Under the pieces are notes generated by a model. That model worked only from the letters and a program-made list of their open reading frames with translations, was not told the DNA's origin and ran no database searches. The position numbers were made by a program, and so were the translations under genes. A DNA stretch of 63,184 nucleotides, counting the filler, from Dimargaris cristalligena (Eukaryota): the NCBI GenBank assembly GCA_003614675.1. It is 11 parts of 11 records of this genome, joined end to end, with 100 filler letters (N's around TTAATTAATTAA, not from the genome) between each part and the next. Parts side by side here need not be neighbours in the genome. Positions count along the whole stretch, not along the records: positions 46,084 to 51,724 come from ML003598.1; 10 more parts are not named here. One strand, written 5' to 3'. Shown here in pieces: positions 289 through 63,184 of this stretch (the stretch's first letter is position 1; every line of letters begins with the position of its first letter).

Positions 289-360
289 AAAACGGCCTCG
301 AATCAAATGATGTTTTAACTAAGGCTTGCCTTTCCGAAAGGAATAAAAGGGAGTGGAGCA

Positions 361-32366: not shown

Positions 32367-32916
32367 TGTCAGCCCACCTAATCCCCCCTAAATACAGTAA
32401 TACTGATCATCCCATCCTATCTTGCCTTATTGCACCATATTACCCCCCCTTTGCTATATAACCTACTATATCCAGGTCCCAACACTTCTCATGCAATACC
32501 CCACTGGCTGATCCGATGTTCCTCCTTTCCCAGTAGAGTCCTCCAAAAGTAAGCCCACCCAGTCGAGACTCTAACTCTCACCTCTTCTTTAGTCATCCCA
32601 TTCTCTTAGGGACCTCCCATTCCAAGTGGTCCCTGCGTATAAATAACCAGGCCCCTCTGGGACTAGTTTAGCTCCTCAGCTTATTCCTCACCCCCATAGT
32701 TTACCTCAATAAACTCCCTATATGCTTACCCATTGTATTAGCCAGTAAGTGTGCCTGCTGCATGACCCTTGCATTAGCTTACACCCATCCTTATTTAGTT
32801 AGTACTAACCTCTCCCTAATGCTAGTAGCCCACTTGGCTAAGTCTAAGCCCCACCTACCATTAGAAGCCTATCCCTGGGACTCTTGATGGACTAAGAGTA
32901 GTTAACTCAGGTGACA
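32367..32916 (+). mobile_element. Complete solo LTR (family B), 550 bp
   Basis: TGTCA...TGACA termini; 5-bp TSD AATAC/AATAT (one C>T); TATAAATA near 32638; homologues at 17355 and 32969. Confidence 0.88.
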
Positions 32917-32968
32917 AATATAAAAACTGACCCCAATTGTGTATATTATAGTAATAGAGAATTGGCAG

Positions 32969-33552
32969 TATCACTCAGGTTAACTACCCTTAGTCTGTCA
33001 AAAGTCCTGAAGATAGGTTTCTAACAGTAGGTGGGGCTTAGGCCCAGCTTAATGGGTCACTGGTATCAGGTATAGGGTATGGTACTAACAAATAAAGGCT
33101 ATAGTATATATATGCAAGGGATATGCAGGAAAGTATACTTACTGGTTAGTATAAGGGGGAGTAGGTATATATAGGGTTTATTGGATAAATGAGGGGTACA
33201 AATAAGCTAAGGAATCTAACTGGTCCCAACAGGGCCTAATTATATATATGTAGGGATAACTCCAGAGGGAGGTCCCAAGGGGAATACTAATAAGACTAAT
33301 AGCTAGGTAAATAGGCTGACTGGATAATTGTTATTATCTGGAAGACTCAGATGGCAATTGGAAGGGTCTAAAGGATCAGCACTTGAGTAATTAGTGTAAT
33401 GAAGCAGAGTCTGGGTGGGGGAGGGTTATATATAATAAAGGATAATCCCATGGTATTGGGTGTGACTATGGGAAAGCTAATATGGTACTAGAAGGCCTAA
33501 TATAGTTGAGTGTCTAATCTAGCTAGATTAAGGTAAATTAGATAGGCCAACA
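32969..33552 (-). mobile_element. Second, more decayed family-B LTR in inverted orientation
   Basis: tatcactcaggttaactacccttagtctgtcaaaagtcc... is the reverse complement of the 3' end of 32367-32916; far end approximate (attagataggccaaca). Confidence 0.7.
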
Positions 33553-34599: not shown

Positions 34600-35094
34600 G
34601 TAGCTTTTGAGGGTTTTTGACCAAATTACCCATTATCATGTTCCCTGTGGATAGCAATTATGACCAAAAGGTCGCCTGCCTGAGATTCACATTAAATAAA
34701 ACTCTACTTCATCTGAGCTAGACCCCCTCTTCCATATAATATAAAGACTCAATGTGCATTTTATACCTAAGCACTAAGTGTGTGGATATTTTGCAATGGC
34801 CCACTTTGTGATGGGGGCAAATGGTATGCCGTACAGTGGGGATTTTATAATAGCTCCCCCCATATTGAAATCCCAGTGGAGCTAAAAGGCCAAATGGGGT
34901 CTGATATAAATCAGGTAGACTGTGCTTGCCCTTGTGAACAGCTTGCCACCCAGCAACTTACATATTTTGTCATTAATTTCTGCCCTTATTACACATAGTT
35001 ATGCCCATTAAGAAAGAACCTGGTTCATTATAGATTAGGGAAAGTGATTTATGGTTCACTAATATACAGTATAGAGGCCATTCTAGGCATTCAG
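34600..35094. repeat. Left copy of a 495-bp inverted repeat bracketing contig 7 (partner 39748-40242)
   Basis: Reverse-complement match with at least five differences, all transitions. Confidence 0.95.
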
Positions 35095-36188
35095 CTCATT
35101 TTTAGTAAGATGGTGCTTTGAAATTGGAAATGAAATATTGGGAGGCCTTAATTATACATCTGTGTATTTGGCCACTGGTGACCAGTATCAACATTATGAA
35201 CTCATTTTATTTATATCACTTCCTTCTATTTCTCTTAGCTTAAGCATTATCATACTTCATTATGGAAGGACATTCAACACTCATTATAGACTAGACGCTA
35301 TCTTACTATCTTTGCCAGATCAATCATTGCCGGAAATACCCCGAATACTTAAGCCACATTTAATCTATTACCTTTTGCCCCCCTACCTGCTGGCCTCCTT
35401 TCGACTGTGGATAGCCTTTTTGATTACCAAGTCGCGTAATTAGTAGTGTTTTTTTGCACACCATCTGACTTTAGCCGCCATTATATTCTAGTATCTATTG
35501 GCTAGTTCAGTCCTAATTATTATCGCCACCCCTTATTCTACTATTGTGTCTTAGTTATCACAGATTCTCTCTAAGGTTATGAAAACCAAAGTAGAGAGTG
35601 CCATCAATTACTTTAAATGTACAGAGTTCAGCAGAAATTGAGGCCAAATGGGGAAACTCAACACCGACTTTAGCTCTGGTTTCCGATAAGCCAGTGCCTA
35701 TATCTATGTTCTGGTGGTACGACTAGAGTAATCTGTATTGTGAAGCATTTTAATGGTTTAATTATAGTTTCAGGATATCTTTTCTTTGACACGATGCCTG
35801 TATCATGTTTACTACTGATATATTCAGGTTTCCCGCTTATCCACATTTATATTTCTCATCTAATGGCATCCCCCGCTAGCGTCTCTACCCATATCTGTTG
35901 AGATCCTTCAAGACCAGGACCCAGCAGTACACCACAATCTGCTTCCCCTATTGCATGTTAGCCACATTGACTCACATAAAGGCTAAGATTGGCCCTGTAG
36001 CTATTTCACGTCAAATTTTTTCTCTGGTTTCGCAGAGTCTATAGACTACACAATACAGGCTGGATTCCACTACCGGAATATTGGAACTTCTTTACTTCGT
36101 TTTCACTACCCTTCACTGCCAGTGGCGGACCCTTTTCTTCAATTTCCACCTTTTCTATTCCTTCTTATACATGGTTCACTTGTAAGGC

Positions 36189-37874
36189 ATGGGGCTGTCT
36201 CATGATTGGCTCGATGTAATGGACATCGACGAGGGTTCGGTTCTCAACTCCATTCACTCCAGTATTGAATACTACCGCCGGGTCCGTCCCATCTCCTCTC
36301 TAACCCCATCAGTCGCCCGACCTTTACCACCGGCCCAGGGAGCAGCCGCCCAAACGGAGACCCTCCAACTGCTCTTTGTACTCGACACCAGCTACTTGCT
36401 GGCCCAACTCGGCTTTCTGCGTAAACTATTAGCTGCCGCGCGGCAAAGGACCGGCGTGGGGGTAGTCGTGCCCTGGGTCGTTATTCGGGAATTAGACGGT
36501 CTCAAGGAGGCCACCACCGGCCACCGGTCAGTGGACCGCCAACCCAGTTCGGGGCGAGGTCTCGATGATAGTATCTACAGTGACCAGGTCGTATCCTCTC
36601 GCACCTCCGCTAAAAAGTCGTCAACGGGCATCGGGCGCGCGGCTCGGACGGCCATCGATTTTATCCACAATTCACTGCAACCTTCCGCCGGCTCAGTGCT
36701 TCGCGGCCAACGGGCCACCGAGTACCTGCTGATGGAGAAGCAGAATGACGACCAAATCCTGGATTGCTGCCGCTACTTTGCCGAGATGGCGCAAATTCCC
36801 ACCGTGGTCCTACTCTCCACCGATAAGAACCTGTGCGTCAAAGCCATGATCCATGGTCTTCCAACATGTGGCATCTGGAAAGGGCAACCAGAGGATTTGC
36901 TTTCACATTATCATCATCCTGCACCATCTCATTTTGGCTCGAAACCTCCGGATTACCCGGAGGAAGTACCGGCGCCTGTCTCGTTGACGGCGCCTAGTCA
37001 ATACCAGACCGGCTACGATAACACTATTAATAACGATGCCGACAGTGACGCGATGATGATTGATTCAGACGACGAACCCACCCTGACCGTACCCGAGTCG
37101 CATCCGTCTTTGCCCATCCCTGACTACGTACCCGTCGCCCCTCAAACTCCCACGCCTGCAAAAGGGCCATCCTTACTAGCCCAGCGGCTGGACCAGCTGA
37201 CGGCCATCATTGAGTACATCGAAGATCCCGATCGGTCCCTGCTATCGCATGCCATTAAGTACCAATTTTACATTGACCTCGGCGAAGATTGGGACCACTT
37301 TGTGACCTCTTTTCGTGGCACCCCCTGGACCCTCCGCGACATGTGTGATATTGTACAGCGGTACTGGCAAGGCAACTTCCGTGCGGTTTACCCCGGTCCG
37401 GCCTATCCCGTTTTCGAGCTTCTCAAGCGACAGCACATGGCCTGGCTGGAGTTGCGCAGTCGGGATCCGGTCGAATTAATTGAATTCGAGGAATCCCACT
37501 TGACGATCCCTAGCGACCCCAATGTGAAGTGCGGTGGTCTACCCTCGGTTAAGGAAATCGAGAAGATCACTCCTAACCACCGCCTCTGGAATCGCCCACC
37601 GCCAAACCTCAGTTCAGTGCCGCTGGCCACCCTTATCCAAGTAGTACTGAGCCCGGCCGCGCTCCGCGTATTCCTCGACCACTTGGACATGATGCTGAAA
37701 TTGTGCGACGATGTCACTCGCACCCTTCCTCTCCAACAACGGGACGGTGAAATCCCCTCTAAACTGAATGGATGGTTCCGATCACTGCCGGCCCTGTTTC
37801 TCAATCCCCACGCTCCCACGCGAAGCTATTTGATTAAAGAATGGCGACAAGGACTATCGTTAGATTATAATTAA
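36189..37874 (+). CDS. SWT1: PIN-domain RNA endonuclease, Swt1-like, 561 aa
   Basis: FVLDTSYLL, VVVPWVVIRELDGLK, LRGQ, NDDQILDCC, VLLSTDKNLCVKAMIHG. Confidence 0.88.
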   Translation: MGLSHDWLDVMDIDEGSVLNSIHSSIEYYRRVRPISSLTPSVARPLPPAQGAAAQTETLQLLFVLDTSYLLAQLGFLRKLLAAARQRTGVGVVVPWVVIRELDGLKEATTGHRSVDRQPSSGRGLDDSIYSDQVVSSRTSAKKSSTGIGRAARTAIDFIHNSLQPSAGSVLRGQRATEYLLMEKQNDDQILDCCRYFAEMAQIPTVVLLSTDKNLCVKAMIHGLPTCGIWKGQPEDLLSHYHHPAPSHFGSKPPDYPEEVPAPVSLTAPSQYQTGYDNTINNDADSDAMMIDSDDEPTLTVPESHPSLPIPDYVPVAPQTPTPAKGPSLLAQRLDQLTAIIEYIEDPDRSLLSHAIKYQFYIDLGEDWDHFVTSFRGTPWTLRDMCDIVQRYWQGNFRAVYPGPAYPVFELLKRQHMAWLELRSRDPVELIEFEESHLTIPSDPNVKCGGLPSVKEIEKITPNHRLWNRPPPNLSSVPLATLIQVVLSPAALRVFLDHLDMMLKLCDDVTRTLPLQQRDGEIPSKLNGWFRSLPALFLNPHAPTRSYLIKEWRQGLSLDYN

Positions 37875-38125
37875 TGCAGGACATTTGTTTGATCTCTTTA
37901 CAACGATGACACTTCGAGGTATAAATACCACCAAAGACGCGATACCCTAACCTATATAGCATAATGTATTCCGCAATACCCTCTAGATGAACTTCTTTTG
38001 CATCTACTTCCTTTATTTTCCCGGTCGTCGGTAAAATGCTACTAAGTTGGCCTTACAATCTCGCTTATACGACCCGTACCCTTACGATCCGAGTATATAA
38101 AATAAAAAAAATGAATAATACACAT

Positions 38126-38515
38126 TTACAGTAGGTTACTAATAATTTTGGACGTCCATTCCTGGGCCAATGCGTATGGGTTTTTACCCAGTATTTGCTG
38201 CTCGGCGGTAACGAGTTGCCGCTGGATGGCGGCCAGTTGTTGTTCAACCGTCGCTACAATATGCTCTAAGCCGTCCAACTCGGCAGTTGCCGCAGACAGC
38301 CGGGAAAGGTGGTGGGCCAAGAGGGCGGCTAGTTCGTCCTGGGAATGTTCAAGTGCGACATCATGCCGTTGGACCTGCTCGGCTTGGTCTAACAGGTTGC
38401 GGTCCATGGACCGACCCAGGGCCAGAGTTGCACCGATGGTACGGGTGGGAAGGACATGGGTGTGCAATAGGTTTTGGGTGGCCTCGTCAAGAAGTTGCGG
38501 GTTGGGTGGGGGCAT
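38126..38515 (-). CDS. Small coiled-coil protein, possibly BLOC-1 subunit 4 (Cnl1/cappuccino)-like
   Basis: 129-aa helical ORF (ELDGLEHIVATVEQQLAAIQRQLVTAE) convergent with SWT1; family assignment is a loose resemblance only. Confidence 0.5.
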   Translation of the reverse strand: MPPPNPQLLDEATQNLLHTHVLPTRTIGATLALGRSMDRNLLDQAEQVQRHDVALEHSQDELAALLAHHLSRLSAATAELDGLEHIVATVEQQLAAIQRQLVTAEQQILGKNPYALAQEWTSKIISNLL

Positions 38516-38975
38516 GGTGCAATGAGGTAAATTTCCAACGAGAAAGATGACGTAAACGAACTAAAGAAACCGGAAGCAAAGCTGGCGGGGTTGAACCTAA
38601 GTGGAATGCGTAGACCCCTAAAGCGAATGGGAAGATAAAAAATCACATACTCTTTGGATAAAGGTACCAATCCGTTTTCCCTCCCGCTGGGGGATTTTAA
38701 ATAGGGTTGATGCAATACTATAACTGAATAGGTATGGTAATAAACCCTCCGAGACTTATGAAGGGGGAAAACCACAAAAGTACATCAAACCATGGAATTA
38801 GCAGTAAGTGTTTGGCATATTTTGGCAAATGTTGTTTCCAGGCCTGCTTAATCTTTAATAGTATATCCTGGCTAAACTATTTTTAGTTTAGAAAAGATGA
38901 GGAACATCACCAAAGATCAGTCTTCATCTTTTCCCACCCATTTATAAGCCATTTGATGGCTAGGCCGTTTTTTCC

Positions 38976-39011
38976 AGTATTCCATATTCAATATTCAATA
39001 TTCAGTATTCA
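38976..39011. repeat. Five tandem copies of a 7-mer (consensus AATATTC)
   Basis: AGTATTC CATATTC AATATTC AATATTC AGTATTC. Confidence 0.7.
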
Positions 39012-39747
39012 TAGTTCTTACTTATAACTCGAGGATCTTGTAGTTATAGAAGTCTAGGGCATATCCCCAGACTTAGCACCTTTAAAGCTGCCAACATTAG
39101 CGGCCTTCTTTATTACATTTCATATAAATGCCCATTGGGTATTCTCCTAATAAACAGGCAGTTTTACATTAAGTATAGTTTACCAGTTAGTTATTTCAAT
39201 CCACTGGTCTTGTTCTATCCCTATCATCTATTTGGCCCAAGCCCATTCATTGTGCCTTATCTGCTGTACACTAGAAGGATCCCTGTGTGATCCCCAGTTG
39301 CCCTAGTTGTCCCTATCTGAAGATCAGATAAGAATTATCCCCACTGAGTGTGTGTTTTCCTTAGTTAGTTGGTTTTTCCACCAGACCAAGACTGCTCTAG
39401 TCAGCCCTGATAAGGCTATCAGGCTATATTACCTTATGGTATTAAGTGTGACCACAATGCAAGATACTTAAAATATATTAATCATACAGCCTAGTATAAA
39501 AGTTCAGAATGTAATTCATTAAATATATGTCTGCATAGGACAGTTTTCAATTTACAAAATAAGCAAATGCATAGATTCTATAAAACTATATGAGCCTTTG
39601 GAAATGGATAGTATTAGACAAAAGTGGTATGACAATAGAGTGGAGGCATACCCCCAGTATCAATCAATAGCTATAAGATGGTGCAATTGGGTTCTCTCAA
39701 CAATACTTGATTTCCTATTTCAATTATTCCCCCCCTCAAAGAAAAAA

Positions 39748-40242
39748 CTGAATGCCTAGAATGGCCTCTATACTGTATATTAGTGAACCATAAATCACTT
39801 TCCCTAATCTATAATGAACCAGGTTCTTTCTTAATGGGCATAACTATGTGTAATAAGGGCAGAAATTAATGACAAAATGTGCAAGTTGCTGGGTGGCAAG
39901 CTGTTCACAAGGGCAAGCACAGTCTACCTGATTTATATCAGACCCCATTTGGCCTTTTAGCTCCACTGGGATTTCAATATGGAGGGAGCTATTATAAAAT
40001 CCCCACTGTACGGCATACCATTTGCCCCCATCACAAAGTGGGCCATTGCAAAATATCCACACACTTAGTGCTTAGGTATAAAATGTACATCGAGTCTTTA
40101 TATTATATGGAAGAGGGGGTCTAGCTCAGATGAAGTAGAGTTTTATTTAATGTGAATCTCAGGCAGGCGACCTTTTGGTCATAATTGCTATCCACAGGGA
40201 ACATGATAATGGGTAATTTGGTCAAAAACCCTCAAAAGCTAC
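39748..40242. repeat. Right copy of the contig-7 inverted repeat
   Basis: Reverse complement of 34600-35094. Confidence 0.95.
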
Positions 40243-40343
40243 NNNNNNNNNNNNNNNNNNNNNNNNNNNNNNNNNNNNNNNNNNNNTTAATTAATTAANN
40301 NNNNNNNNNNNNNNNNNNNNNNNNNNNNNNNNNNNNNNNNNNC

Positions 40344-43300
40344 CCGAGCCTGAGCCCTAGTCCCGAAAGCGAGACGCTCCCAAATGCCGGCCTAACAAGT
40401 GGAGCCCAATGCGGGGGGCTCAGTATCCCTGGAGTCACCACTCTGGTGGGATTCGACAAACCGCTGGAATACACGGACGAGGACGCCGAAAGCTTCATAG
40501 AGGAATTCGAGGGCTACGCGATGGCGCGTGGCATGTCGGACCGTGAGAGGTTGCGTCACGTAAAGAAGTTGACACCGAAGAAAGTACGCAATCAACTGAA
40601 GGACCTGTACGAGCCCGGTACGCCGTGGGTGCAGGTCAGAGCGTTCCTCCTCAGGCATGCAGAGAAGAGACGCAACGAGGGGCCGGACCGATGCTACAGA
40701 ACGTTGCAACGACTGGCCAAGAAGCGGCCGCGGGAAAGAGAGCTCCTGCCGTTTCTCCAAGTGTTCGAGGAGGCGGCACGACTAGCCACGGAGGTATCCA
40801 ACGCGGAAAAGGTGAAACTGCTGGAGAAAGTGGTACCCCGCAAGATCCTTGTGCGTACGCTCGACCGTTGTTCCGGGGGAAAGCCGAGATTTGAAGAGTA
40901 CCTCCGTAAACTAACGGAGACAGTATCCCGAGACAAACACCTCCGTAGATCGAAGAGGGAAACCAGCGACTCCGAGTCGGACGGCGACACCGAAATGAGT
41001 TCGGATAGTAGCGATGGGGACTCGTCGGACAGTGACGATGAGCGCCCTCGCAAGAAGCGCGGAGCGCGGGCCACGGCGGCGAAGAGGGTCAAAACGAGTC
41101 AGGTGCAAATCGAGGACCTGACCACGCAGTTTGCCAACATGGAGTCTCGGTTGTTCGACAGACTCAGCGGAATAATGCAGGCCAAACTCGAGAGCACGAA
41201 GCAAAGGGAAGGCATGACGGCGCGTCCCAAGTTGTGCCTCTACTGCGATCAACCGGGACATTTTCGTAGCGACTGCACGGAGTTCTTCGAAGCCGTTGCC
41301 GCGAAGAAACTACGCATTAGCGGGAAGCAGGTAGTGTATGCGGACGGAACGGTAGCCATGGCGCGATTCGGGCAAGGAGGGATCAAGGCGGCACTGAGTG
41401 AGAGAGAGCCGCGCACCACGAGCTCCTCGGTGACTGTATCCCAGATCCCGATGCGATGGGAGGTGATGGGACCGGAAGATCACCCCGCGGTCTGGCAAAC
41501 GGGAACCGTCAAGAAGGGAAAGAGCCCGGCGGGATGGGCTACCGATGCTGTCGTGGAGGACCGCTCACTCGATCCAAAGCGCAAGTTGCGAGCGCCACTG
41601 GGAGATAAGGCCCCAGGGCTCAGTGTAGCGCAGGACGACAGCGACGACGGAGGCATGGAGGACCCCGAGCCGAGCCCGGCGAAACCCATGTTGATGGACC
41701 GCGCGACCAGTGCACCGAGGAAACAGAGGCAACCCGCTAAATTTCACCTGGTGGCGAAAATCGACGAATACAACTCCGACGATCTGGTAATGGAACATTT
41801 GGGTCGAAACAACCTAGGTCTATCGGCCTGGGAGTACTTGGCCATCGTACCGCGAGCGCGCAAACTGGTGCGACAGCATTTGACGAAGCACCGGCAGTAC
41901 GTGAACCGGGAACCCATGGCGCAAGGGGTTCAGGCGGACGAAACTTCCGCATCGGAGTCGGACGAGGAGTGGGCAGAAGCCAGTGCCCACGAGGCCCCAC
42001 CGCGAAGTGCGAAAACGACTACGCGGATTCTGCGGTTACCCACCATGATCATACCGGCCGTCATCGGAGGCGCGCGAACCGAGGTGTTGATAGACACGGG
42101 GTCCGAGGTGAACCTGGTACCGGCTAGGTTGGCTAAACTGCTGCCCGCTGGCACGGTACAGCTCCATCCCGAAATCCCCAAGGTATTCGGAGTCGGCGAG
42201 AGCGCGGTGGAATCAGGGAAGGCCATGTGGGACGTAATGGTCACAACGGGAAAGATCTCTGTCCCGACCAGTTTCCTCGTGGTAAACGACAACCATCAGC
42301 AAACGATTCTCGGTATGCCGTGGTTGGCCTCGGTTGACTGGGTAGTCAGCAAGAGCGAGCGAGGTCAGAAACAATTGGTGGTAACGTGGGAGGGCGTCAC
42401 GGAGCGATTCGCAATCCCCAGTGGACCCAGGACTAACGTCGTCCGAAGTCTCGCCGTTACTACTGGAATTCCGCAGACCCTGGCCGCGAGATACAAACCA
42501 GCTCATAAGAAAGTGCACCCGGTGGCGGCACCCATGCCTGCCGAGTATCAAACGGAGTACCCCATAACGGGAAGAGACATATTCGACGACGTTGACATGA
42601 ACTACTCCGGGGACCATCGACTTACTGATGAAAACACTAGAGCGCTAGTGATCGGTGACGGCGAGTTGACAGACACTGAATCTCACTACTTCCTGAATCG
42701 GCTCAGGGAAGTCGACCAAGTTTTTGCGTTCAATAAGACCCATTTGGGAATGGTGAAACCCGAGTTTGCGCCGCCGATCCGAGTTGCGACCGTGCCACAC
42801 ACTCCGTGGAACTTTAAGCCGTTTGCAGTGCCCCGAGCTATGCACGACCAAGTAGTGGCAATGTTGCGCGACCGACTCGAGTCAGGGGTGATCGAACCAT
42901 CCGAAGGACCGTACGCGAGCCGGTGGTTCACACTGCTCAAGAAAGACGGGAAGAATCTACGGTTCATCCAGGACTTCCAACCGGTGAACGCAGTCACGAT
43001 ACGGAATGCCGGAGTACCCCCGGTGGCTGATGCGATGGCTGAAGAAGTGTCCGGGTGCAGCCTCATCACGAAATTCGACTTATACTCCGGGTATGATCAG
43101 ATTCCCATCGATCCCCGTGACCGTGACATCTTCGCGATCAACACACCGATTGGCCTAGTCCGTATGACGAGGCTACCGATGGGGTGGGCCAACAGCGTAA
43201 GCACATTCCAGAGGGTGCTAACTTCTATCCTACACCGACACATGCCGGATCGGTTGTCCCTGTTTGTTGATGATGGGGTCGTGAAAACCCGAGTAGGGAA

Positions 43301-45899
43301 GGAGGAGGGGGAAAATACGGTGGGCGGAATACGCCGAAAGGTGATACAGCATGCGGACGACGTCGTGGCGGTTCTATCCGATCTAATGAAAAGCGGTCTA
43401 GTGATCAGCGGAACGAAGTCGGCCTTCGGAATGACGAAGGTAGAGGTGTTAGGGTACATGTGCACAACCGACGGGAGATGCCCGACTGAGTCTAAGGTGA
43501 ACGCCATTCTTGCATGGGAACCACCCACCAACGCGAAGGAAGTGCGATCGTTCATCGCGACGTGCGCGTTTCTGCGAGTCTGGGTTCCCCACTTCTCGAC
43601 TATTGCGGGGCCTCTGTACGCGCTAACTCGGCAGCGGACGACATTCCAGTGGGGCCCCGAGCAGGATAAGGCCTTTCGAACTCTGAAGAGCGCGCTCACC
43701 GAAGCGCCCCTCATCAAAACGCCACGGTACGGAAGTGGCGCGCCACCGTTAGTCCTGACGACGGATGCCAGCCCCACCGGAGCGGGAGCTGTGCTGGGCC
43801 AAACAGACGACGACGGCAACCGATACGTGATACGATACGAGAGCTATCTGTTTTCGGAGCGGGAACGGCGGTACGCGCAGATTAAACGTGAATTGTTCGC
43901 TACTTACATGATGGTGAAAAAATTACGCCGTTACCTGTACGGGACGTTCTTCATACTGGAAATAGACGCCCAACCACTCATCGGCCTGATAAACTGTCCT
44001 GACCTACCTGGAGATGTCGCCAGTCGATGGATCGGGTACTTGAAGATGTTCGACTTTGAGATCCGGCACATAAAGGGAGTGGATAACCCCGTGGCTGACG
44101 CGCTGAGCCGGTTACCCGTGAAGCCGTTAGCGACGCCGCCACATACCAGCCAATTGAAGATTTTCGCTCGAGACGACGTACCGCTACCGAAATTGCGACA
44201 CCTGGCCGACGCAGGGATTGATGTAGTAACTCGCGTTGACGTGCGCTTCGAACCCGGAGAAGCCACTCGCGTACCCACCGGGCTCTACTGCACCCCTCCC
44301 GAGGGGACTTACATACGGGTAGCCGATCGCAGCAGCATGGCGCTTCAGGGATTTCGAGTGGGCGGAGGAGTCATCGACCCGGGGTACACTGGCGAAATAT
44401 GCGTCATAATATCGAACGAGACGAATCGAGTCCAAGACCTTCGCCAAGGAGACCGAGTAGCTCAGCTCATCCTAGAGCGCTTCGCGAAACCGGATGTGAT
44501 TCGAGTGCCAAAGGAAGCTATTCTCGGTGACAGAAGGGGGGCGGGTTTTGGGAGTACTGGAGTAAACGTTGTAAAGAGCGTAGTTTTGACGGACCCCGGA
44601 GATTACCTTGGTGTACACAGCGTGAAACAGGCATGTAGACGGGAGGGTGGTGAATTCGAAGCCATTATCCAATTCCTCCAGAATGGCACCTTCTCGGCTG
44701 AATTAACGACCAGTCAACGTGCTGGGATTCGACACCAATGCACTCGTTACCTGCTGAATGAAGGGCTGCTGTATAAGCGAGAGAGGATTGGGTTGCCGCG
44801 GCGAGTCATCAGTGACCCCGAAGAGCGTCACCGCGTAGTGGTCAGCGTGCACGGGGGGCACCCTAGTGGTCATCGAGGCATAAAAGCAACTCACCGCATG
44901 TGCGCGAACAGATTTTTCTGGCCTAACCTCTATAAGGACGTGGAACGGGTCATCCGAACATGCGACATCTGTCAACGAAATCCCCACGGGTCCGTGCAAG
45001 TGCCGCTCAAAGTGACGACGGGATCCACGATCTTCAGCCGCATCGGCATAGACCTTACTGAACTCGAGGAATCAACGGAGGGGCATCGTTACCTTGTCGT
45101 GGCCCGTGACGATTTAACCGGGTGGGCGGAAGCGCGTGCGCTGAAGGACAAGAGGAGTACGACCGTGTACCAATTCCTATACGAAGACGTCGTATCTCGA
45201 TTCGGAATTCCCGGCGAAATCCTAGCCGATCGCGGTGAGCTCTGGGGGAAGGTGGTGGCGCGGGCTGCTCGGCAGGACGGACTCACCCTGAAGTTCACGA
45301 CGGCGTACCACCCTCAGACGAATGGAATGATTGAACGCGGCCATCGGGACCTCGTCAACTGCTTAAAGAAATTGTGCCAAGAACAGCCCGAAGTTTGGCC
45401 CGGGTTCCTACACGCCGCACTCTGGGCTGACAGAACCACCGTAAAAACCACGACGGGAGTTAGTCCCTATCGCATGGTGTACGGTCAAGACTGCACCCTA
45501 CCGTTCGACCTGCAGGAGCACACCTGGATCAGCCTACCCTGGCGCGACGGAATGACGACCGACGAGCTCCTGCGATGCCGAGCCACTCAACTGAAACAGA
45601 ATTCGTGGCTGCGCGAGGCTGCGGGTATCAATTTGGACACAAATCGTCTACGAGGCAAGAAATATTTTGAACGCCGGCACCCCATACGACAGCAAGGGTT
45701 TCAAGTCGGGGACCTAGTCCTGTTGAAAGATACGCGACTCGCGAAGGTCAAGGGGAAGCTCCGCGCCCGTTGGCGAGGGCCGTACGTAATTGCCACCGTA
45801 GTGCATGACGACGTTTACACCCTTAATGAATTAGACGGTTCAACGTTTAAAGATCCTACTGCTGGGGTCCATTTGCGTCATTACTTCCGATCCGTTTGA
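40344..45899 (+). mobile_element. Ty3/Gypsy single-ORF gag-pol, 5'-partial: Gag(CCHC)-PR-RT-RNase H-dUTPase-IN
   Basis: Frame open from the contig start; CLYCDQPGHFRSDC, LIDTGSEVN, KFDLYSGYDQ, LPMGWANS, LFVDD, TTDASPTGAGAVL, ADALSR, dUTPase motifs, H..H..CDIC, IGID / LADRG / MIERGH, WRGPY. Confidence 0.97.
44154..44561 (+). other. In-frame trimeric dUTPase domain within pol
   Basis: All five motifs: AGID, DRSS, GVIDPGYTGEI, GDRVAQL, RRGAGFGSTG. Confidence 0.95.
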
Positions 45900-45928
45900 A
45901 CCGGACGTTCAAATTCGGCCCCAGGGGA

Positions 45929-45983
45929 TGTACTGCCGTGGGCAGGGACGGGTTTCCGCCCTAAGAGTGGGCCTGGTGGATTA
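45929..45983 (+). mobile_element. Start of the 3' LTR of the dUTPase element (truncated)
   Basis: Short purine tract AGGGGA (45923-45928) then TGTAC, 30 nt after the pol stop. Confidence 0.6.
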
Positions 45984-46083: not shown

Positions 46084-46402
46084 TCACCACTCAGAGGGAG
46101 GAGGTCGATCCTTTCCATAGTACTCCCCATCTGAGTGATGGAGACCTGTCGGACAACGGCATGAACTACCTATCCCCCCCACTGGAGGAGGACGTCCCTA
46201 CCCCAACGGCACAAGAACAATACCTCTTCTCAGAGGACTAATAATACCCCGCCCGGGTGACCGACTATAGCTCTTTGTCTTCTAAATAAATAATTATTAC
46301 CTTCAATTACTTCGATCTTGTTTTTTACTTCCAACCTGCCCAATTCGGTACTCCCATTATTTCTTTATAGTTACACGGCCCTACTCGGCCTTTATGGTTA
46401 CA
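46084..46402 (+). mobile_element. 5' LTR (partial) of the second Ty3/Gypsy element, ending GGTTACA
   Basis: 319-bp direct repeat of 51406-51724; one difference seen (ttatgg vs ttacgg). Confidence 0.92.
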
Positions 46403-46406
46403 AACT

Positions 46407-46420
46407 TTTATTTAGAAGAC
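46407..46420 (+). promoter_or_regulatory. Putative self-priming primer-binding site
   Basis: TTTATTTAGAAGAC, 4 nt after the LTR, is the exact reverse complement of LTR 46277-46290; no TGG tRNA-type PBS. Confidence 0.75.
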
Positions 46421-46434
46421 CTTAATATATAATT

Positions 46435-47322
46435 ATGTCCTCCATTGAACCAACCCCCCGTGCTCCCACTCAACGACGGATCAGCAACCCACCTTTTGCA
46501 CCCCAGCATGGGCTCCCCTCTGGTGCACTAGACACCCTGATGAAGAATGTCAAACCCTTCTCAGGCAAACCACCGGGCCCTACCTGGAACTCTTGGAAAC
46601 TGTCTCTCAGTGCAACCATCCAAGACTACTACCCCCAGATGGCCGCTGGAGCCCAGTTTCGCTTGACAATTGCCCTACTACAAGATGATATCCGCGACCT
46701 GGTAATCAAATCCGGCAAAGACACCACCGATGATTTCGAGGACTTCATGAAGGCCACCTACCCAATCTCACTATGGGCTGAATACTACGATATGGCATTG
46801 CACTCGGGGACCCTCTTCAAGGGGAAGAACATTTACATTGCCTGCTCCATTGCCAGTGATGCCGCCTGGCAACTTGGAGGAACTAGCCACTGGTGCACCC
46901 AGGTTACAAAAGCCTTGCTTGCCGAGTTTCGTACCCATCTGGAACAAGCACCCCATGAGTTGTGGAACTTCACTGAGTACACGGCAGGGAATATGCCTGA
47001 GCATTTTAAAGCTATCACGCAGGCAGTACTGGCCAGTCAAGCCCGTCAGGCTGCTATTAGGACGGCACCGGGACAGGGTCCACCTTTCCAAGAAACTCGT
47101 GAAGTGGCACACAAAGGTACTAGGGATCTCAGCCCACCGTCGACAGAATCAATTGTGGCAGCAGTACTTGCAGCTCTCCAAGAAAAACCCCCGATGGGTA
47201 ACACAGATGGTCGAAGCAAGAATCGTCGTCGTAAGGATCGCCAAGCTAAAGTAATGGCAGAACTACGAGCTGAGAATGCCCAACTCCAACAGGCTGCAAA
47301 TAACCAACCGGGAAAAGCCTAG
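46435..47322 (+). CDS. gag: Gag, 295 aa, no CCHC knuckle
   Basis: Lies between the PBS and pol; VKPFSG...W..W capsid-like pattern; basic C-terminus. Confidence 0.85.
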   Translation: MSSIEPTPRAPTQRRISNPPFAPQHGLPSGALDTLMKNVKPFSGKPPGPTWNSWKLSLSATIQDYYPQMAAGAQFRLTIALLQDDIRDLVIKSGKDTTDDFEDFMKATYPISLWAEYYDMALHSGTLFKGKNIYIACSIASDAAWQLGGTSHWCTQVTKALLAEFRTHLEQAPHELWNFTEYTAGNMPEHFKAITQAVLASQARQAAIRTAPGQGPPFQETREVAHKGTRDLSPPSTESIVAAVLAALQEKPPMGNTDGRSKNRRRKDRQAKVMAELRAENAQLQQAANNQPGKA

Positions 47323-47340
47323 AGGTGGTAAAGACCCCTC
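47310..47340 (+). promoter_or_regulatory. Putative -1 ribosomal frameshift signal
   Basis: G GGA AAA heptamer in the gag frame; pol is in the -1 frame; hairpin GAGG(T)GGT-AAAG-ACCCCTC starts 5 nt downstream. Confidence 0.75.
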
Positions 47341-50300
47341 CAATACTAGCGGCAATTATTCCTAATAAACCCAGTATTTACCCCTTTACCACCAAAGACA
47401 TCAGTTCACATTGGAGACTACTACAAGAGGCAGCACTCGGCGGAGTCAAAGTTAAGGCAGCAGCAGACCAAGGGGCCTCGACCAGTATCATCACTCGGGA
47501 AGCAGCTACCCGCCTACACCTTAAGATCAACCAACAGGTACGGCCCCATCTACGGGCATTTGGGGGACATAGTTATGCCCCCTCACTAGGTACGGCACGG
47601 GCACGATTTTCCACATCGGAATCATCCAAAAAACGCTGGGTAAAGTTCACTGTTATCGAGGTTGTAGCTGATATTGACGCCTTAATCGGCCGCCATGATT
47701 TAGATGCTCTGGGCCTTGATTTACGACCACCACCTGATCCGACACCAGCTCCCCAAATGGCTACCCCCTTAGGCCAGTCCGAGCTACCTAAAGTTACCCA
47801 AAGGAAAACCCTGGAACCTAGGGGATTACCAGCAGGAACCTTTACCCGAATAAATCCTCACACAGACCTAGAGTTTAAAAGGGCTAATGATCAATACCCC
47901 CTCCCTACCCAGGAAAGTGTGAGGTCGAGACTAAAGGAGCAGCTCCCGTGTGCCCTAAGTAGGAGATCCCTCCTGAGGGAGCTTATGACTGGAGCTCAAT
48001 CTCTTCGAGAGTACCCTCCAAGTTGTCCACCCCCATGTCTACTTAAGCCAATAACTCCCCCTCTGAAACCAGAGGCTAAACTCCTGTATATCCCTCAGGC
48101 CCCCAGGAGCCAGGCAGACCGGGAGTTTATGGATAACTACATTAAGACTCGCCTCCAATATGGAGTAGATGAGCCAGGTTTTGCCCATGCTAACCTGCCG
48201 GTCTACAGCTTACCAAAGCCCAATACCGATGCACGGAGAGTGATCTTAGATGACAGCCAAGGAAGCACTATCAATATGCACTCCTTAGGAATGCAGCTTC
48301 CTAAGCTTCATGAAGTCCGATCCTTTGTATGTGATGCCAAATTAATCACCAGTATTGATTTAGCCTCCTATTTCACGCAGATTAGGCTGGCAGAAGAAGT
48401 CCGGGACTTCTGGACCTTTGATGGTGGGTCCAATGGCCGAGTTCGGGCAGCCCGCCTGGTCCAAGGCAATAGCCAAAGCCCTGCAATAGCACATGCCCTC
48501 CTTATGCATGTGTTCAACAGTATTCCTGACTTACACGGCCGCTTATTAGGGTATATTGATAATATCTACCTGAAAAGTACGAATGGCAATGTCAGAGAAC
48601 ACATTCACGATATTGGCAAACTTGTTAGAAACCTTGCACTATGGGGTCTGACGATTAATATGTCTAAGAGTGAATTTGCGGGCACAAAAAACGTCGAAAT
48701 CTTAGGTTACCGCTGGTCACAAGATAACAGCTGGTCTATCCCAGATCACTGGGTGGCTGACCTCCAACAGCTACCAATGCCCCAAACAGTCAAAGAAATA
48801 CAACGTCTAACTGGTGGCATCAATGCCATATCCGCACATCTCCCATGGGCAGCCGCACTCCTGGCCCCCTTCTACGCCCTAACTGGACTTCACAGATTAA
48901 CCAAGCAGCACCTATCTGATCTCCAACCTCATTGGGAGGGGTTAAAAGAAGCCCTCTTAGACACCCAGCACCTCTATGAACCGAAGCCTGGAGAACCTCT
49001 TACCCTCCGGGTGGATGCAGCAGAGGCAGGAGTAGGGGCTGTATTACTAGCCCACACTAGTGATCAAAAGGACCAGGTAGTAGCCTACTTCAGCAAAGCC
49101 TTTGATGGCCAACAGGGAAGGCGACACCCTGGATTTCGTGAAGCATGGGGCCTAGTTAGGGCAGTACGCCACTTCTATACCTACTTAGATGGTGCAACTA
49201 ACTTAAGGATTGAGGTTGACGCTACTACTGCCTTAGGGCTCTTCAACCACAAGGACACCTGTCAGGCCGATGAATTGGCAGGGTTTCGCATAGAACTGGC
49301 TAAATTAGGAATTCATTCGTACATGATCCACCACCGGCCCGGTGAGATGCACCTTACAGCAGACTGGTTATCACGGGCCCTTCACCGCCAGAGACCCCGC
49401 AAACCTACAAAACCCAAGGTTGAGACTATTGCTGCCGTTGAAATCATTACCAGGGAAAATACTGTTAGTAGTGATGGAGGGGAGGCAATTGATATCTCCC
49501 TAACCTCCGACGATGAAGATAACAACTCAATCTCAGACCCAGCAGAATTTCGAGGCGAGTCCACCATTAGGGCAGCACTTCCCACTACCTGGCGCTGGTC
49601 CATTACCATGGAGGATCAGAAGGGTGATACTAAAATAGGGAGCTGGTATAATCTTTGTCTTCGCCGAGACTCTGAAATTGGTAGGGAGGACCCCCTATTT
49701 ACCGAGGTTAACGGCATGGCCATTCGTAATGGGCTTCTCTGTCAGTTAACTCCGGGAATATTGCCCGGTACCATGGGCAGTTGGGTCCCTCTAGCCACAA
49801 CCCCGATAATGAAAGAGGCTATAGAACACTGGCATGTAGAACTCTGTCACCCAGGTAGAGAACGACTCTTAGCCTTTGCCCAAACTCGTTTATCACACCC
49901 AGCACTCCGAGAGTCCATTGACCAATTCACCAAGACCTGCCACACATGCCAAATTAATGCCATCGCCACTATCCGTAACACTCCTCGATCCACTACCTAT
50001 GGTGACCGGAAACCAGGTGAACACCTCTATCTCGATATTGGCTACATCGGTCAAGTGGGACCAGATGAGGAGACCCAATTCCTCATCATCGCCGATGCCG
50101 CCAGCCGTTTTTACCAGGCCATACCCTTACTACAGTCTACAGCCTCGGACATAGTTGAGGGCTTACGTGATGGCTGGATAGGTACCTTTGGGAAACCCCA
50201 CTTAATCACCACTGATAATGGCCCCCAATTCACGGCAGACATCCTTAAAACCTATCTGGACCATCAAGGGATTCGGCACATATTTTCTTCTCATAGTCAC

Positions 50301-51563
50301 CCTATTTCAGAACTGGCAGAACGATATGTGGGATTGTTAAAAAACTCACTGAGGAAATGCTGGAGTCAATATGGAACCACCGAGGGTTGGACACGCTATC
50401 TCCCTAAAATCACTGCGGCACATGCTATCATACCAGACCCACATACTGGTATCTCACCATGGATGGCGCTTAAGGGAATCGAGTCAACAGTGGACATGTC
50501 ACAATTACTGCTCCATCCCGAGACTGAGGGAGGGCTGGAAGGAGTAGCACATTGGGCCATTAATCAAGCTAAGGAACGTCGTACCCGCGTCCGAAAACAA
50601 GCCATGGAACGGCACAATCAATATGTTACTAGGAGGCAGTATACTGCCGGTCAACTGGTCACTGTCAAGGTAGTACCTAAACCAGCTAACTTAGCTAGTC
50701 GGCCAGAGCGAAGGATGGGGCCATTCCGAGTCTTGGAGCGAGCCGGCCTGTCATACAAACTATCAGACCTCGATGGAAACCCCCGACCCCGAAACATTCA
50801 CGGTGATCTACTCCTCCCTTATTATGTAAGTAATAGCGATGGAGATACCCATTCTGGGGAGATAGAGGTAACACTAAACGGGCCGAGACCATTACCTCCA
50901 GATACCGGTGATGGAGAGGGTCAGAGCAATATCATAGGGGACGCAAATGATGAAGACGAGGGCGGCAGAAGTGACGAAGACCAGACTAATCACACCAACG
51001 GACCCCGAAACACTGGGAGCGATGAAACGGACATATCACCAAGAAAGCCGCGATCTCCAACTGGTAACTCAGAAGATGAATATAATAGCGAAAGTGAGGA
51101 TTTGGAGGAAGAAACATATCAATGGTTCACCTCTGAGTCGGACTCGGAATATCTATCAGATATTTGCCCAGAGCAGACGCCACTGGACGTACATACCCAT
51201 GGCACCAAGAGACAAGCTTCACAGTCCCCTACATTGGCTGAAGCATCTCACCCTACTCGCCAAAGGCTACGCGAGTCGACCAGTCCCACTCTCCTAGCAT
51301 TCCCGCATCTTCGGGAAAAGCTGAACCAAGAGGTCCGGGATTCACAAGTCATAACTTCCGAGGATGAGGAATTGCCCTGGAGTATTGTGCAACCAAGGGC
51401 GACCGTCACCACTCAGAGGGAGGAGGTCGATCCTTTCCATAGTACTCCCCATCTGAGTGATGGAGACCTGTCGGACAACGGCATGAACTACCTATCCCCC
51501 CCACTGGAGGAGGACGTCCCTACCCCAACGGCACAAGAACAATACCTCTTCTCAGAGGACTAA
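47310..51563 (+). CDS. pol: Pol (PR-RT-RNase H-IN plus ~240-aa acidic tail), highly divergent
   Basis: ADQGAS..IGRHDL (protease); SIDLASYFTQ, LVQGNSQSP, GYIDN, ILGY (RT); RVDAAEAGVGAVL, TADWLSR (RNase H); H..HPG..CHTC, LYLD / TDNGPQF / AER (integrase); MGPFRV. Confidence 0.92.
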   Translation, partial: GKSLEVVKTPPILAAIIPNKPSIYPFTTKDISSHWRLLQEAALGGVKVKAAADQGASTSIITREAATRLHLKINQQVRPHLRAFGGHSYAPSLGTARARFSTSESSKKRWVKFTVIEVVADIDALIGRHDLDALGLDLRPPPDPTPAPQMATPLGQSELPKVTQRKTLEPRGLPAGTFTRINPHTDLEFKRANDQYPLPTQESVRSRLKEQLPCALSRRSLLRELMTGAQSLREYPPSCPPPCLLKPITPPLKPEAKLLYIPQAPRSQADREFMDNYIKTRLQYGVDEPGFAHANLPVYSLPKPNTDARRVILDDSQGSTINMHSLGMQLPKLHEVRSFVCDAKLITSIDLASYFTQIRLAEEVRDFWTFDGGSNGRVRAARLVQGNSQSPAIAHALLMHVFNSIPDLHGRLLGYIDNIYLKSTNGNVREHIHDIGKLVRNLALWGLTINMSKSEFAGTKNVEILGYRWSQDNSWSIPDHWVADLQQLPMPQTVKEIQRLTGGINAISAHLPWAAALLAPFYALTGLHRLTKQHLSDLQPHWEGLKEALLDTQHLYEPKPGEPLTLRVDAAEAGVGAVLLAHTSDQKDQVVAYFSKAFDGQQGRRHPGFREAWGLVRAVRHFYTYLDGATNLRIEVDATTALGLFNHKDTCQADELAGFRIELAKLGIHSYMIHHRPGEMHLTADWLSRALHRQRPRKPTKPKVETIAAVEIITRENTVSSDGGEAIDISLTSDDEDNNSISDPAEFRGESTIRAALPTTWRWSITMEDQKGDTKIGSWYNLCLRRDSEIGREDPLFTEVNGMAIRNGLLCQLTPGILPGTMGSWVPLATTPIMKEAIEHWHVELCHPGRERLLAFAQTRLSHPALRESIDQFTKTCHTCQINAIATIRNTPRSTTYGDRKPGEHLYLDIGYIGQVGPDEETQFLIIADAASRFYQAIPLLQSTASDIVEGLRDGWIGTFGKPHLITTDNGPQFTADILKTYLDHQGIRHIFSSHSHPISELAERYVGLLKNSLRKCWSQYGTTEGWTRYLPKITAAHAIIPDPHTGISPWMALKGIESTVDMSQLLLHPETEGGLEGVAHWAINQAKERRTRVRKQAMERHNQYVTRRQYTAGQLVTVKVVPKPANLASRPERRMGPFRVLERAGLSYKLSDLDGNPRPRNIHGDLLLPYYVSNSDGDTHSGEIEVTLNGPRPLPPDTGDGEGQSNIIGDANDEDEGGRSDEDQTNHTNGPRNTGSDETDISPRKPRSPTGNSEDEYNSESEDLEEETYQWFTSESDSEYLSDICPEQTPLDVHTHGTKRQASQSPTLAEASHPTRQRLRESTSPTLLAFPHLREKLNQEVRDSQVITSEDEELPWSIVQPRATVTTQREEVDPFHSTPHLSDGDLSDNGMNYLSPPLEEDVPTPTAQEQYLFSED

Positions 51564-51724
51564 TAATACCCCGCCCGGGTGACCGACTATAGCTCTTTGT
51601 CTTCTAAATAAATAATTATTACCTTCAATTACTTCGATCTTGTTTTTTACTTCCAACCTGCCCAATTCGGTACTCCCATTATTTCTTTATAGTTACACGG
51701 CCCTACTCGGCCTTTACGGTTACA
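50867..51724 (+). mobile_element. 3' LTR; 51406-51724 shown by repeat identity, start at 50867 inferred
   Basis: PPT GGGGAGATAGA (50856-50866) then GGTAACACTAAACGGGCCGAG, an imperfect inverse of the LTR end CTCGGCCTTTACGGTTACA. Confidence 0.65.
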
Positions 51725-57557: not shown

Positions 57558-57669
57558 AAAAATCCACTTGATGAGGCAAATACTACTGGTTGAAAATAAA
57601 CATCCCACCGATTTTCCCATACACATATCAGTTAAACCCTTATACAGCCAAGCTGAACTTCACCCATAT
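57558..57669 (-). repeat. Partial copy of the ~144-bp palindromic element
   Basis: Ends TTATACAGCCAAGCTGAACTTCACCCATAT; 57568-57617 is identical to 63135-63184. Confidence 0.85.
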
Positions 57670-58819
57670 CCTCTCCCCCTTCTCTATATTATATACCCCT
57701 ATTATTATCCATCTTTTATATCGATATGTTTTGGCCCGAATTCCTGTATGATGACTGGGTTATAATTCACTCTCTACCGTAATCAGCGCGATGTGTATGC
57801 CTACGGCGTTTAGAAACGCACTTTATGATGTCTTTTTATATGCTTGAATAAATAAAACAAATACTTTAATAATCCGTGCCGTTTCGGCCAGTATGGAAGT
57901 ATGATGGCCTTACTAGACAATGGTAATTGAAGGCTGGACTATTGTAGTTAAGTGAATTATAGAGGTGGCACCTTTCCCCGCTGGAGTTGGTTTCCAGCGA
58001 TATATTTACGAGAAATCCAGGTACGGTCTAACGGCCCTCCCCAATATGCCTTATACACCACCCCTTTTAAAATAATTGTCGTATAGGAAATGGGGGTCTA
58101 TAAGAACGCCCCGCACTATTTAGATTACAATGTAATAACGCTGTCCATCACCAATTTCAGTAACTGAGATAGCTCGAGTCAATATTCTCGACCATAATAC
58201 ATTTATTACAGACGGTTAATGGGCAATCATCATATATATATATACTATGTATCGTTCGTTTTCTAGTTGGCGGGCGCTATTTCCACCTGGTACATATACG
58301 CAGTCTAGCGGCGAGCTTTCTTGGTGGGAAGGGGCCACTGATACAAATCGATAAATTAAATTGTATTGGCATTTTTGACTTTCCTACGAGTTTACGGCTC
58401 AATCCCCGCTGGGCCATGTGATAAACCAACCTCCGCCTTCTTGACTGGCTATTCAATTTACCCTTTTTAGCCTCCTTAATACTACCCAGTGCAACGAGTA
58501 CCCAGAACACCGCTATTACCCAGGTTATGTCGATGAATACGCTACAAGATGATCGCACATAAAGTGCCTGGGTTAGGCATATACAAAGAAGGCCGCTTAA
58601 AGTAAGCATCCCTAAAAACTAAAAAACTGTATTTAGCCATATTAATTCACTTCTTCGACCCTGTAGAACAGTTGTATTAGGATATCATTGTGAATAAGAT
58701 CGATTGACTATATTAATAGGGCGATTAATGGCATGTGTAAAATACCGACAGGCTAGTTCAATAAAATACGATAGGAAAATAATTATGCGAATACAAGGGA
58801 GAAGGAGATGGGGGGGGGA

Positions 58820-60407
58820 CTAGTCACTCATTAGTTTTACCAAGTCGGCGTCATCCACCTCCGGTTTAGTTTCGGCCAAATTCTTGAACTTGGCGAACAA
58901 GCACTTGAAGTTCTCCCGCGAAATACTGGTGTAGCCCAACATATTAAGTCGGGACATGAGAGCGGTCCGGCCACTCTGAGCGGACAGGATGAGGGCGTCA
59001 CTGGTGGCGCCCACGTCGGCGGGATTAAGGTATTCGTAGGTCATCCGATTCTTTAACATGCCGTCCTGGTGAATCCCGGACGTGTGTCGGAATACATTGC
59101 GTCCCACCACGGGTTTATTGGCGGCCAGGGCCATGCCGCTTTGGGCAGAGACCATTCGGCAGACCCGCGTTAGGAGGGGCGTGTTGAGGTGGTGGATGGC
59201 ATGGTAATGGGCGGCATGCGTGGTGAGGCACATGGCCACTTCCTCCAAAGCGGCGTTGCCGGCTCGTTCGCCGATTCCGGTCAGGGTTACATCCACCACG
59301 GTGGCTCCTGCCTCAATACCCGCCAGGGTGTTGGCGACTCCGAGGCCCAAATCATTGTGCGTATGGACTCCCCAGCGCGCCTAAGAAATCCACAGTTAAA
59401 GACCAGGAATGACAATCCCAAAAAAATAATACGGGAATAACCAAATTAGGTGTTAGTGATATGGGGCTAGACGGATACGCTCCAGTATGAATGCTGGAGC
59501 ACATGGGACGGCTAAAAAATAGACGTTCCCCCGAAAGCCAGTCGGTGAAACCGTATCCATCTTGGAACGGGTGGGGTCACCTGAGGCTGGATCGATCGCC
59601 CCCAGCACCCTGTTTAAAAACAGGATACGGCCATGCGGCTCAACAACACGGGGGCAGGCTGATTCAGTTTATTTTAACCGTCCAGAGCGGCATTAGCATA
59701 CGCCAATAGGGGTGAGAGGGGGACGGTGTTACAATATATTGCACATCAGGGGCTCCCCTGCAGCTTACCTTCTCGGAATTAGGTGTGCGCTCGATACAAT
59801 GCTTGACCATCTGGTGAAACTCGGCCGGGATACAGCTCCCCACGGTGTCCGTAATTACCACCAGATTGGCACCCTCATCGATCGCAGCTCCGAATACCTC
59901 GCACAGGAAGTCCGGGTCGGTACGGCCCCCGTCTTCGGCTCCAAACACCACTTCCGGAGTCAAAGTCCGGGCCAGCCGAACCCCTTCCCGTACCCGACGG
60001 ATGCATTCGTCGCGGGAGATGCGGAGCTTGTGCTGCAAGTGAATATCGGACGTGGCGATAAAAAGGCGGAGTTGGCAGCGGGGGGCGTCGCGGATGGCCT
60101 CAAAAGTGCGCAAAATATCGCTCTCGATGGTCCGGCACAGCGCGCAAATCATAGCGGGTTGGCCAATGTGCTCGCGGTGGGTCATGTGGTTGCCGACCTC
60201 GCGGGCAATGCGCCGGCAAGTATTGAAGTTCTGTTCCGAAGAGACGGGAAAGCCGGCCTCGATCATGTCGACCCCCAGCTCCGCTAGTCCCCGGGCGATT
60301 TCCACCTTGGCGTCGGGGGTGAATTGGACCCCGGGGGCTTGTTCGCCGTCCCGCAGGGTGGAATCGCCGAACAGGATAAGCTTGGGTTCCGCGTTATTAG
60401 ACAACAT
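58820..60407 (-). CDS. 2-isopropylmalate synthase-like (bacterial/plant LeuA type) DRE-TIM enzyme, 399 aa, no C-terminal regulatory domain; exons 60407-59769 and 59380-58820
   Basis: DSTLRDGEQAPG, EAGFP, FIATSDIH, AEDGGRTD, DTVG, HTHNDLG, GIGERAGNAALEE, NKPVVGRNVFRHTSGIHQDG; phase-0 GTAAGC..TTAG intron. Confidence 0.9.
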
Positions 60408-63092: not shown

Positions 63093-63184
63093 ATATGGGA
63101 GTAGTTCAACAAGGCTGTATAACGAAAAGTCCATTTGATGAGGCAAATACTACTGGTTGAAAATAAACATCCCACCGATTTTCC
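63093..63184 (-). repeat. Partial copy of the ~144-bp palindromic element, same orientation as the 57558 copy
   Basis: Starts ATATGGGAGTAGTTCAACAAGGCTGTATAA; 50-bp identity with 57568-57617. Confidence 0.85.

Follow-up and report, generated by a model that had tools for sequence, protein, structure and literature searches.

A perfect 14-nt complementarity between LTR and leader suggests Tf1-like self-priming in a chromodomain-less Ty3/Gypsy-type element of Dimargaris cristalligena

The window analysed here, a stretch of 63,184 nucleotides from Dimargaris cristalligena (GenBank assembly GCA_003614675.1), consists of 11 contigs, each about 5.6 kb long and separated from the next by an N…TTAATTAATTAA…N spacer, and the element described below coincides with one of these contigs (46084-51724, 5641 nt; record ML003598.1). 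The contig opens and closes with a terminal direct repeat of 319 nt (46084-46402 and 51406-51724), the two copies of which are identical at 318 of the 319 positions, with a T at 46395 facing a C at 51717 as the sole mismatch. Between the repeats lie a gag-like ORF, which matches no Pfam family and in which no CCHC knuckle was seen, and a long pol ORF that overlaps it in the -1 frame, with a canonical slippery heptamer (G GGA AAA) placed in the overlap (Table 1). The frameshift announced by the first-pass annotation, which had been made from the sequence only, is therefore of the canonical -1 type. The same layout is found in L001, a metagenome contig carrying a relative of this element, where T TTA AAA, one codon and TAG follow each other at 943-955, just as the corresponding signals do at 47310-47322 here.

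According to Pfam, the pol product contains, in this order, a protease, a reverse transcriptase (RT), an RNase H, a zinc-binding integrase domain and an integrase core. Its best relative of solved structure is the Ty3 Gag-Pol protein 7q5b (E 1.6e-26), with 4ol8 as a further match (E 5.8e-18), and the alignment to 7q5b also served for comparing the acidic positions of the RNase H domain, where the Ty3 residues D, E, D and D, which we take to be the catalytic ones, all find an acidic counterpart. Two active sites depart from what is usual, as had been claimed: motif C of the RT reads YIDN, and the active-site triplet of the protease is DQG (within 47430-47450, pol residues about 43-50), the relatives having DTG, DLG or DPG at this place. 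The residue that follows the active-site Asp of the protease is, in fact, unusually variable among the relatives. The description of the element as chromodomain-less holds as well, given that PF00385 was matched neither in pol at E<=0.1 nor, even at E<=10, in its C-terminal 356 residues, and that none of the eight nearest full-length relatives tested (8/8) has a chromodomain either. Judging from its LTRs, its gag, the order PR-RT-RNase H-IN and the fact that Ty3 is its best solved relative, the element is a Ty3/Gypsy-type LTR retrotransposon.

Table 1. Coordinates of the features of the element, counted along the whole window
Feature	Position	Strand	Basis and remarks
5' LTR copy	46084-46402	+	319 nt, ends …GGTTACA; 5' boundary is the contig start and uncertain
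TATA-like word TAATAATA	46239-46246	+	Read directly; putative promoter role
Proposed self-primer	46277-46290	+	LTR 14-mer complementary to the post-LTR site; proposed start of R; pair probabilities 0.905-1.0
AATAAA hexamer	46285-46290	+	Canonical poly(A) signal word within the 14-mer; read directly, putative function
Spacer AACT	46403-46406	+	4 nt, between LTR end and proposed primer-binding site
Proposed primer-binding site	46407-46420	+	Perfect reverse complement of 46277-46290; without TGG
gag-like ORF	46435-47322	+	ATG at 46435, TAG at 47320-47322
pol ORF	47304-51563	+	1419 aa; Pfam order PR, RT, RNase H, IN; last 158 nt lie within the terminal repeat
-1 frameshift heptamer G GGA AAA	47310-47316	+	One codon upstream of the gag stop
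RT motif C (Y-I-D-N, not YxDD)	48552-48563 (pol 417-420)	+	Read directly and by alignment
RNase H domain	48933-49256	+	Pfam PF17919/PF17917; four acidic positions align with Ty3 D, E, D, D
3' LTR copy	51406-51724	+	Direct repeat; ends at the contig end
Pure polypurine run AGAGGGAGGAGG	51415-51426	+	12 nt, read directly; 9 nt inside the repeat
14-mer copy in the 3' LTR	51599-51612	+	Word search of the window

The limits of the LTRs deserve a comment, since both ends of the repeat are contig ends and no flanking DNA is seen, so that the boundaries are deduced from the point at which the assembly breaks off and from the CA at the end of the repeat. Position 46402 is taken as the 3' end of the LTR because the assembly stops there, because the CA is canonical and because in other repeat contigs of the window, too, the terminal repeat runs right up to the contig end. 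Less confidence attaches to the 5' limit. The repeat begins with TC rather than TG, pol continues for 158 nt into it, and the only pure polypurine run lies inside it, so that this run can be considered as a plus-strand primer only on condition that the true LTR begins after the run. Three further contigs of the window (1-5691, 34600-40242 and 57558-63184) end in terminal repeats of their own and appear to be further repeat elements assembled from end to end: one carries an inverted repeat of about 297 nt (4-298 and 5395-5688), another an inverted repeat of 543 nt that reaches the exact contig ends, and the third a 60-nt direct repeat at either end.

Downstream of the 5' LTR, a leader of only 32 nt (46403-46434) separates the repeat from the gag ATG. 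Direct comparison of the sequences confirms the central claim of the first-pass annotation, namely that the word TTTATTTAGAAGAC in this leader (46407-46420) is the exact reverse complement, over 14 of 14 nt, of the word GTCTTCTAAATAAA inside the LTR (46277-46290). When up to 2 mismatches are allowed, the 14-mer is matched three times in the whole window, once in each LTR copy and once, on the minus strand, in the leader. The TATA-like word that had been noticed some 30 nt upstream of 46277 is also there: TAATAATA overlaps the pol stop codon (TAA, at 46239-46241 in the 5' copy), and 30 nt lie between it and 46277. A U3/R border near 46277 would fit this arrangement, because the TATA-like word stands 30 nt upstream of it and an AATAAA just inside the proposed R.

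The leader contains no TGG between the LTR and the gag ATG, again as claimed, which leaves no place there for the 3' end of a tRNA to dock. The absence of a tRNA-type site does not by itself dispose of host RNAs, given that priming at 46403-46425 might be the work of a tRNA half, of a fragment from inside a tRNA or of some other small RNA, in which case the match to the LTR would have a different cause, and half-tRNA primers are indeed known in copia lineages according to the published survey of plant elements (PMC6317226). The single tRNA of the window (Asn-GTT, with CCA added) pairs with the leader over at most 5 nt, an Rfam search of 46084-46600 matched no family at E<=1, and the 14-mer is A+T-rich. 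Words of that composition are unlike most nuclear tRNA stems. As the site moreover matches the own LTR of the element to an extent far beyond chance, we regard priming by a host RNA as quite improbable.

How far beyond chance the match lies was evaluated in two ways. In the first, words starting 0-12 nt past the LTR end were compared with the whole 319-nt LTR in search of perfect complements, against a background of dinucleotide-preserving shuffles: a complement of at least 14 nt appeared once in 20,000 trials when both parts were shuffled, and in none of 20,000 when only the LTR was. In the second, the same geometry was applied empirically to the whole window, on both strands and at every second position (58,356 tests), and matches of at least 12 nt were confined to two loci, the 46277/46407 pair and a palindrome near 32860-33030. 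The latter is the perfect 15-nt inverted core of a long imperfect palindrome that extends over 32600-33285 (716 aligned nt, 68%). The complementarity is thus a real signature, far beyond chance, and on this point the shuffles and the window scan bear the first-pass annotation out.

These same tests weigh against the idea that chance or the assembly produced the pairing, for example through a walk round a collapsed repeat in which the true LTR would be 46276-46402 and the 14-mer its 5' tip. The idea has some appeal, inasmuch as both limits of the repeat are contig ends and the TGT at 46276-46278 would form, together with the ACA at 46400-46402, classic inverted tips. Nevertheless, contigs from four independent runs, out of five DNA runs belonging to two studies, cover this stretch of the element (one of them, record 21 of run X5, spans 46374-47337 with 3 differences), and in other contigs of the window the ends likewise coincide with terminal repeats, as fits an assembly that breaks off at the limits of elements. 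The short 127-nt LTR (TGT…ACA) was judged unlikely in its own right, given the lack of a purine tract before 46276 and the reasoning on contig ends just set out. Altogether, an origin of the pairing in chance or assembly appears very improbable.

At the RNA level, the two words form a stem of considerable stability. The minimum free energy structure predicted for 46277-46440 contains the 14-bp stem (-28.4 kcal/mol, z -4.14, with 0 of 200 shuffles as good), its pair probabilities ranging from 0.905 to 1.0. Setting the 5' end of the RNA at 46084, 46150, 46200, 46250 or 46265 gives a stem probability of 0.999 in each case, so the pairing cannot be used to locate the start of transcription. The stem could also be understood as a regulatory structure of the leader that would mask the AAUAAA of the 5' R copy (46285-46290) and so prevent premature polyadenylation, while some other RNA serves as the primer. 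The last six bases of the 14-mer, at its 3' end, are precisely AATAAA, the stem is very stable and the pairing partner is unique to the leader (two of the three matches in the window being the LTR copies and the third the leader); since 46407-46420 follows the 5' LTR and is found nowhere else, the hiding would be restricted to the hexamer of the 5' R copy. However, this explanation would leave the element with no recognisable primer-binding site, the leader lacking TGG, and would have the partner sitting exactly where a primer-binding site is expected. Masking and priming are, besides, mutually compatible, and the former is no substitute for a primer. A stem devoted to masking, with priming left to another RNA, therefore seems unlikely.

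The best reading of this Ty3/Gypsy-type element is probably that its minus-strand cDNA is self-primed in the manner of Tf1, because a stem of 14 bp at an offset of 4 nt falls within the published in silico rule, which calls for complementarity over 10 bp or more, beginning 0-5 bp past the 5' LTR (Neumann et al. 2019, PMC6317226). In Tf1, according to PMC7175516, the first 11 nt of the RNA pair with the primer-binding site, and RNase H cuts between nucleotides 11 and 12. Transposed to the present element, transcription would start in the 5' LTR at or near 46277, approximately 30 nt past the TATA-like word, and the first 14 nt of the RNA would fold back over a loop of 116 nt to pair with 46407-46420, 4 nt past U5. 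The RNase H of the element itself, whose domain and acidic residues are in place, would then cleave the transcript at the duplex's 3' edge, generating a 14-nt RNA with a free 3'-OH that the RT could extend through U5 and R, and the resulting strong-stop product would be transferred to the copy of R in the 3' LTR. We infer the start site, the RNase H cut and the priming step from the sequence.

Self-priming of the same kind has been proposed for Tj1 (PMC4600332) and for Tosmo1-3 and Tcry1 (bioRxiv 10.1101/2022.12.06.519325), and the element shares several traits with these and with Tf1/Tf2 of Schizosaccharomyces pombe. None has a tRNA-type primer-binding site; the site that follows the CA-ending LTR is complementary to a word of the LTR located about 30 nt downstream of a TATA-like word; a CCHC knuckle is missing from Gag; and the order of the domains is PR-RT-RH-IN. 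The differences are also worth detailing. The duplex has 14 bp here and 11 bp in Tf1. Furthermore, Tf1 requires two duplexes in addition to that of primer and primer-binding site, in a three-duplex “pretzel” (same preprint), whereas here the best flanking duplexes between the stretches adjacent to the primer-binding site and the LTR downstream of the primer (-8.9 and -3.9 kcal/mol) are no better than chance, 257 and 795 of 1000 shuffles, respectively, being as low. The self-priming advanced by the first-pass annotation consequently stands in part: the signature occupies the position of a primer-binding site, the published rule covers it and the acidic residues of RNase H have aligned counterparts in Ty3, but the three-duplex structure that Tf1 needs is unsupported. 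The elements of fission yeasts have a single ORF or an in-frame stop, according to that preprint, whereas gag and pol are joined by -1 frameshifting in this one. The chromodomain, a defining feature of the Tf1/sushi group, is absent. Finally, motif C is YIDN and the named relatives of the element all come from Kickxellomycotina, which also sets it apart from Tf1/sushi.

Self-priming has been predicted widely in Tf1/sushi elements, from fungi to vertebrates (PMC4600332, PMC6317226, bioRxiv 10.1101/2022.12.06.519325), and a survey of plants predicts it, by the rule applied above, for Tcn1-clade chromoviruses as well as for TAR elements of the copia type (PMC6317226). These plant elements belong to a different kingdom and to different clades, and the predictions show that the signature is limited neither to fission yeasts nor even to Ty3/Gypsy. 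The mechanism is therefore not new, and any novelty would have to be looked for in the lineage that carries the signature.

A point of comparison of a different type is Ty3 itself (Saccharomyces cerevisiae, Metaviridae), to which the element is linked by the structure match of pol and by the aligned acidic positions of RNase H, the identity being low. Ty3 is tRNA-primed and uses +1 frameshifting. Regarding motif C, the YIDN of the element departs from the F/YxDD consensus of Ty3/Gypsy RTs, and a change of the second Asp to Asn has been printed, as YVDN, for intact-looking BEL/Pao elements of nematodes, Cer7-Cer12 and Atlas virus (in passages of PMC554778 and PMC9094657 that do not deal with priming), which belong to the Belpaoviridae, that is, to another superfamily and to hosts of another kingdom. 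A literature search on the YxDN motif C returned relevant reports that all deal with BEL/Pao, and one on YIDN in reverse transcriptases returned no paper.

The search for relatives was carried out at the protein level in two ways. A word-indexed search, in which 7,998 candidates were scored, gave 24 proteins at E<=0.001, five of them from Coemansia and 40-54% identical, all others being at most 30% identical. An exhaustive search brought 30,861 proteins within E<=0.001, of which 427 reached E<=1e-30. The best match, 77% identical, is a protein of Dimargaris cristalligena, and further relatives come from Coemansia species, from Ramicandelaber brevisporus and, as two full-length proteins of about 30% identity, from metagenomes. 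Out of 173 homologues, 87 could be aligned across motif C, and 25 of these 87 have N at its fourth place (YIDN in 18, YVDN in 5, YINN in 1 and HIDN in 1).

For a quick maximum-likelihood tree, 171 homologues matching RT-RNase H were considered and 86 were dropped (fewer than 330 query residues covered, or a segment outside 300-560 aa), the 85 that were kept forming, together with the element and L001, a set of 87 rows. In this tree, the N-bearing rows constitute a single clade of 11 rows with an SH-aLRT of 100 and a stem of 0.74 changes per column, apart from 75 other rows, unnamed or loosely named Ty3/Gypsy-like sequences that include the chromodomain bearers P0019 and P0023. The named members of the clade are from Dimargaris, Coemansia and Ramicandelaber, all of them Kickxellomycotina. 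On the evidence of this tree and of motif C, the element belongs to a well-separated Kickxellomycotina clade characterised by YIDN.

DNA of the relatives was sought in genome contigs and in viral contigs, where none was found, and L001 (1 of 412 candidate stretches, with 55% RT identity) is the sole relative with DNA. Its motif C is also Y-I-D-N (about 2260-2271). The contig starts just 164 nt before the gag ATG, and those 164 nt contain no perfect complement of at least 10 nt, a result that, with the contig cut so early, weighs neither for nor against a conserved pairing. Two peculiarities of L001 can be added, an in-frame stop inside the RT just upstream of YIDN (2236-2238), and a host DNA that is very A+T-rich, with Asn-rich proteins.

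Is the lineage a new one? The literature on LTR retrotransposons of Coemansia or Kickxellomycotina, surveyed by titles and abstract openings, held nothing pointing to these elements, and the clade is separated, with an SH-aLRT of 100, from the 75 nearest other sequences. The lineage that carries the signature thus appears undescribed, and the corresponding suggestion of the first-pass annotation is best qualified as plausible. It is tempting to go one step further and to picture self-priming in a Ty3/Gypsy lineage outside the chromodomain-bearing Tf1/sushi group, confined to Kickxellomycotina and related metagenome sequences and equipped with a Y-I/V-D-N RT, in which the duplex would double as a mask of the 5' poly(A) signal. 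We hold this wider picture only tentatively and consider it rather doubtful as a whole. If true, self-priming would have arisen more than once in Ty3/Gypsy, or would far predate the Tf1/sushi group, and would do without the “pretzel” of Tf1.

Self-priming has so far been tied mostly to Tf1/sushi chromoviruses, and its clear signature in a fungal clade that is deeply separated and lacks a chromodomain would broaden the known spread of the mechanism. In addition, a plain 14-bp stem would provide a second and structurally simpler system in which to ask what RNase H needs for making a primer, and the clade would constitute a natural test of whether an RT with a YxDN motif C is active in a high-copy element. 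Basic understanding would be left unchanged; the annotation is useful, and the evolutionary point modest.

The independent DNA runs also give an idea of the copy content of the family, as many of the copies are diverged: contigs less than 90% alike make up 28 of 50, 23 of 42, 25 of 49 and 24 of 49 in the four runs, and one run contig of 1797 nt covers 46395-47054 at about 81%. Contigs of three of the runs (X1, X2 and X5) match the element as far as the pol stop and then continue into unrelated sequence, at 46243 or 51565. As these contigs diverge after the pol stop, sister subfamilies that share the end of pol and differ in the interior of the LTR are suggested. A second and distant element bearing RT and integrase lies elsewhere in the window, at 42744-45500 of the contig 40343-45983, with 27% and 24% identity to the present pol over 469 and 221 aligned positions, respectively.
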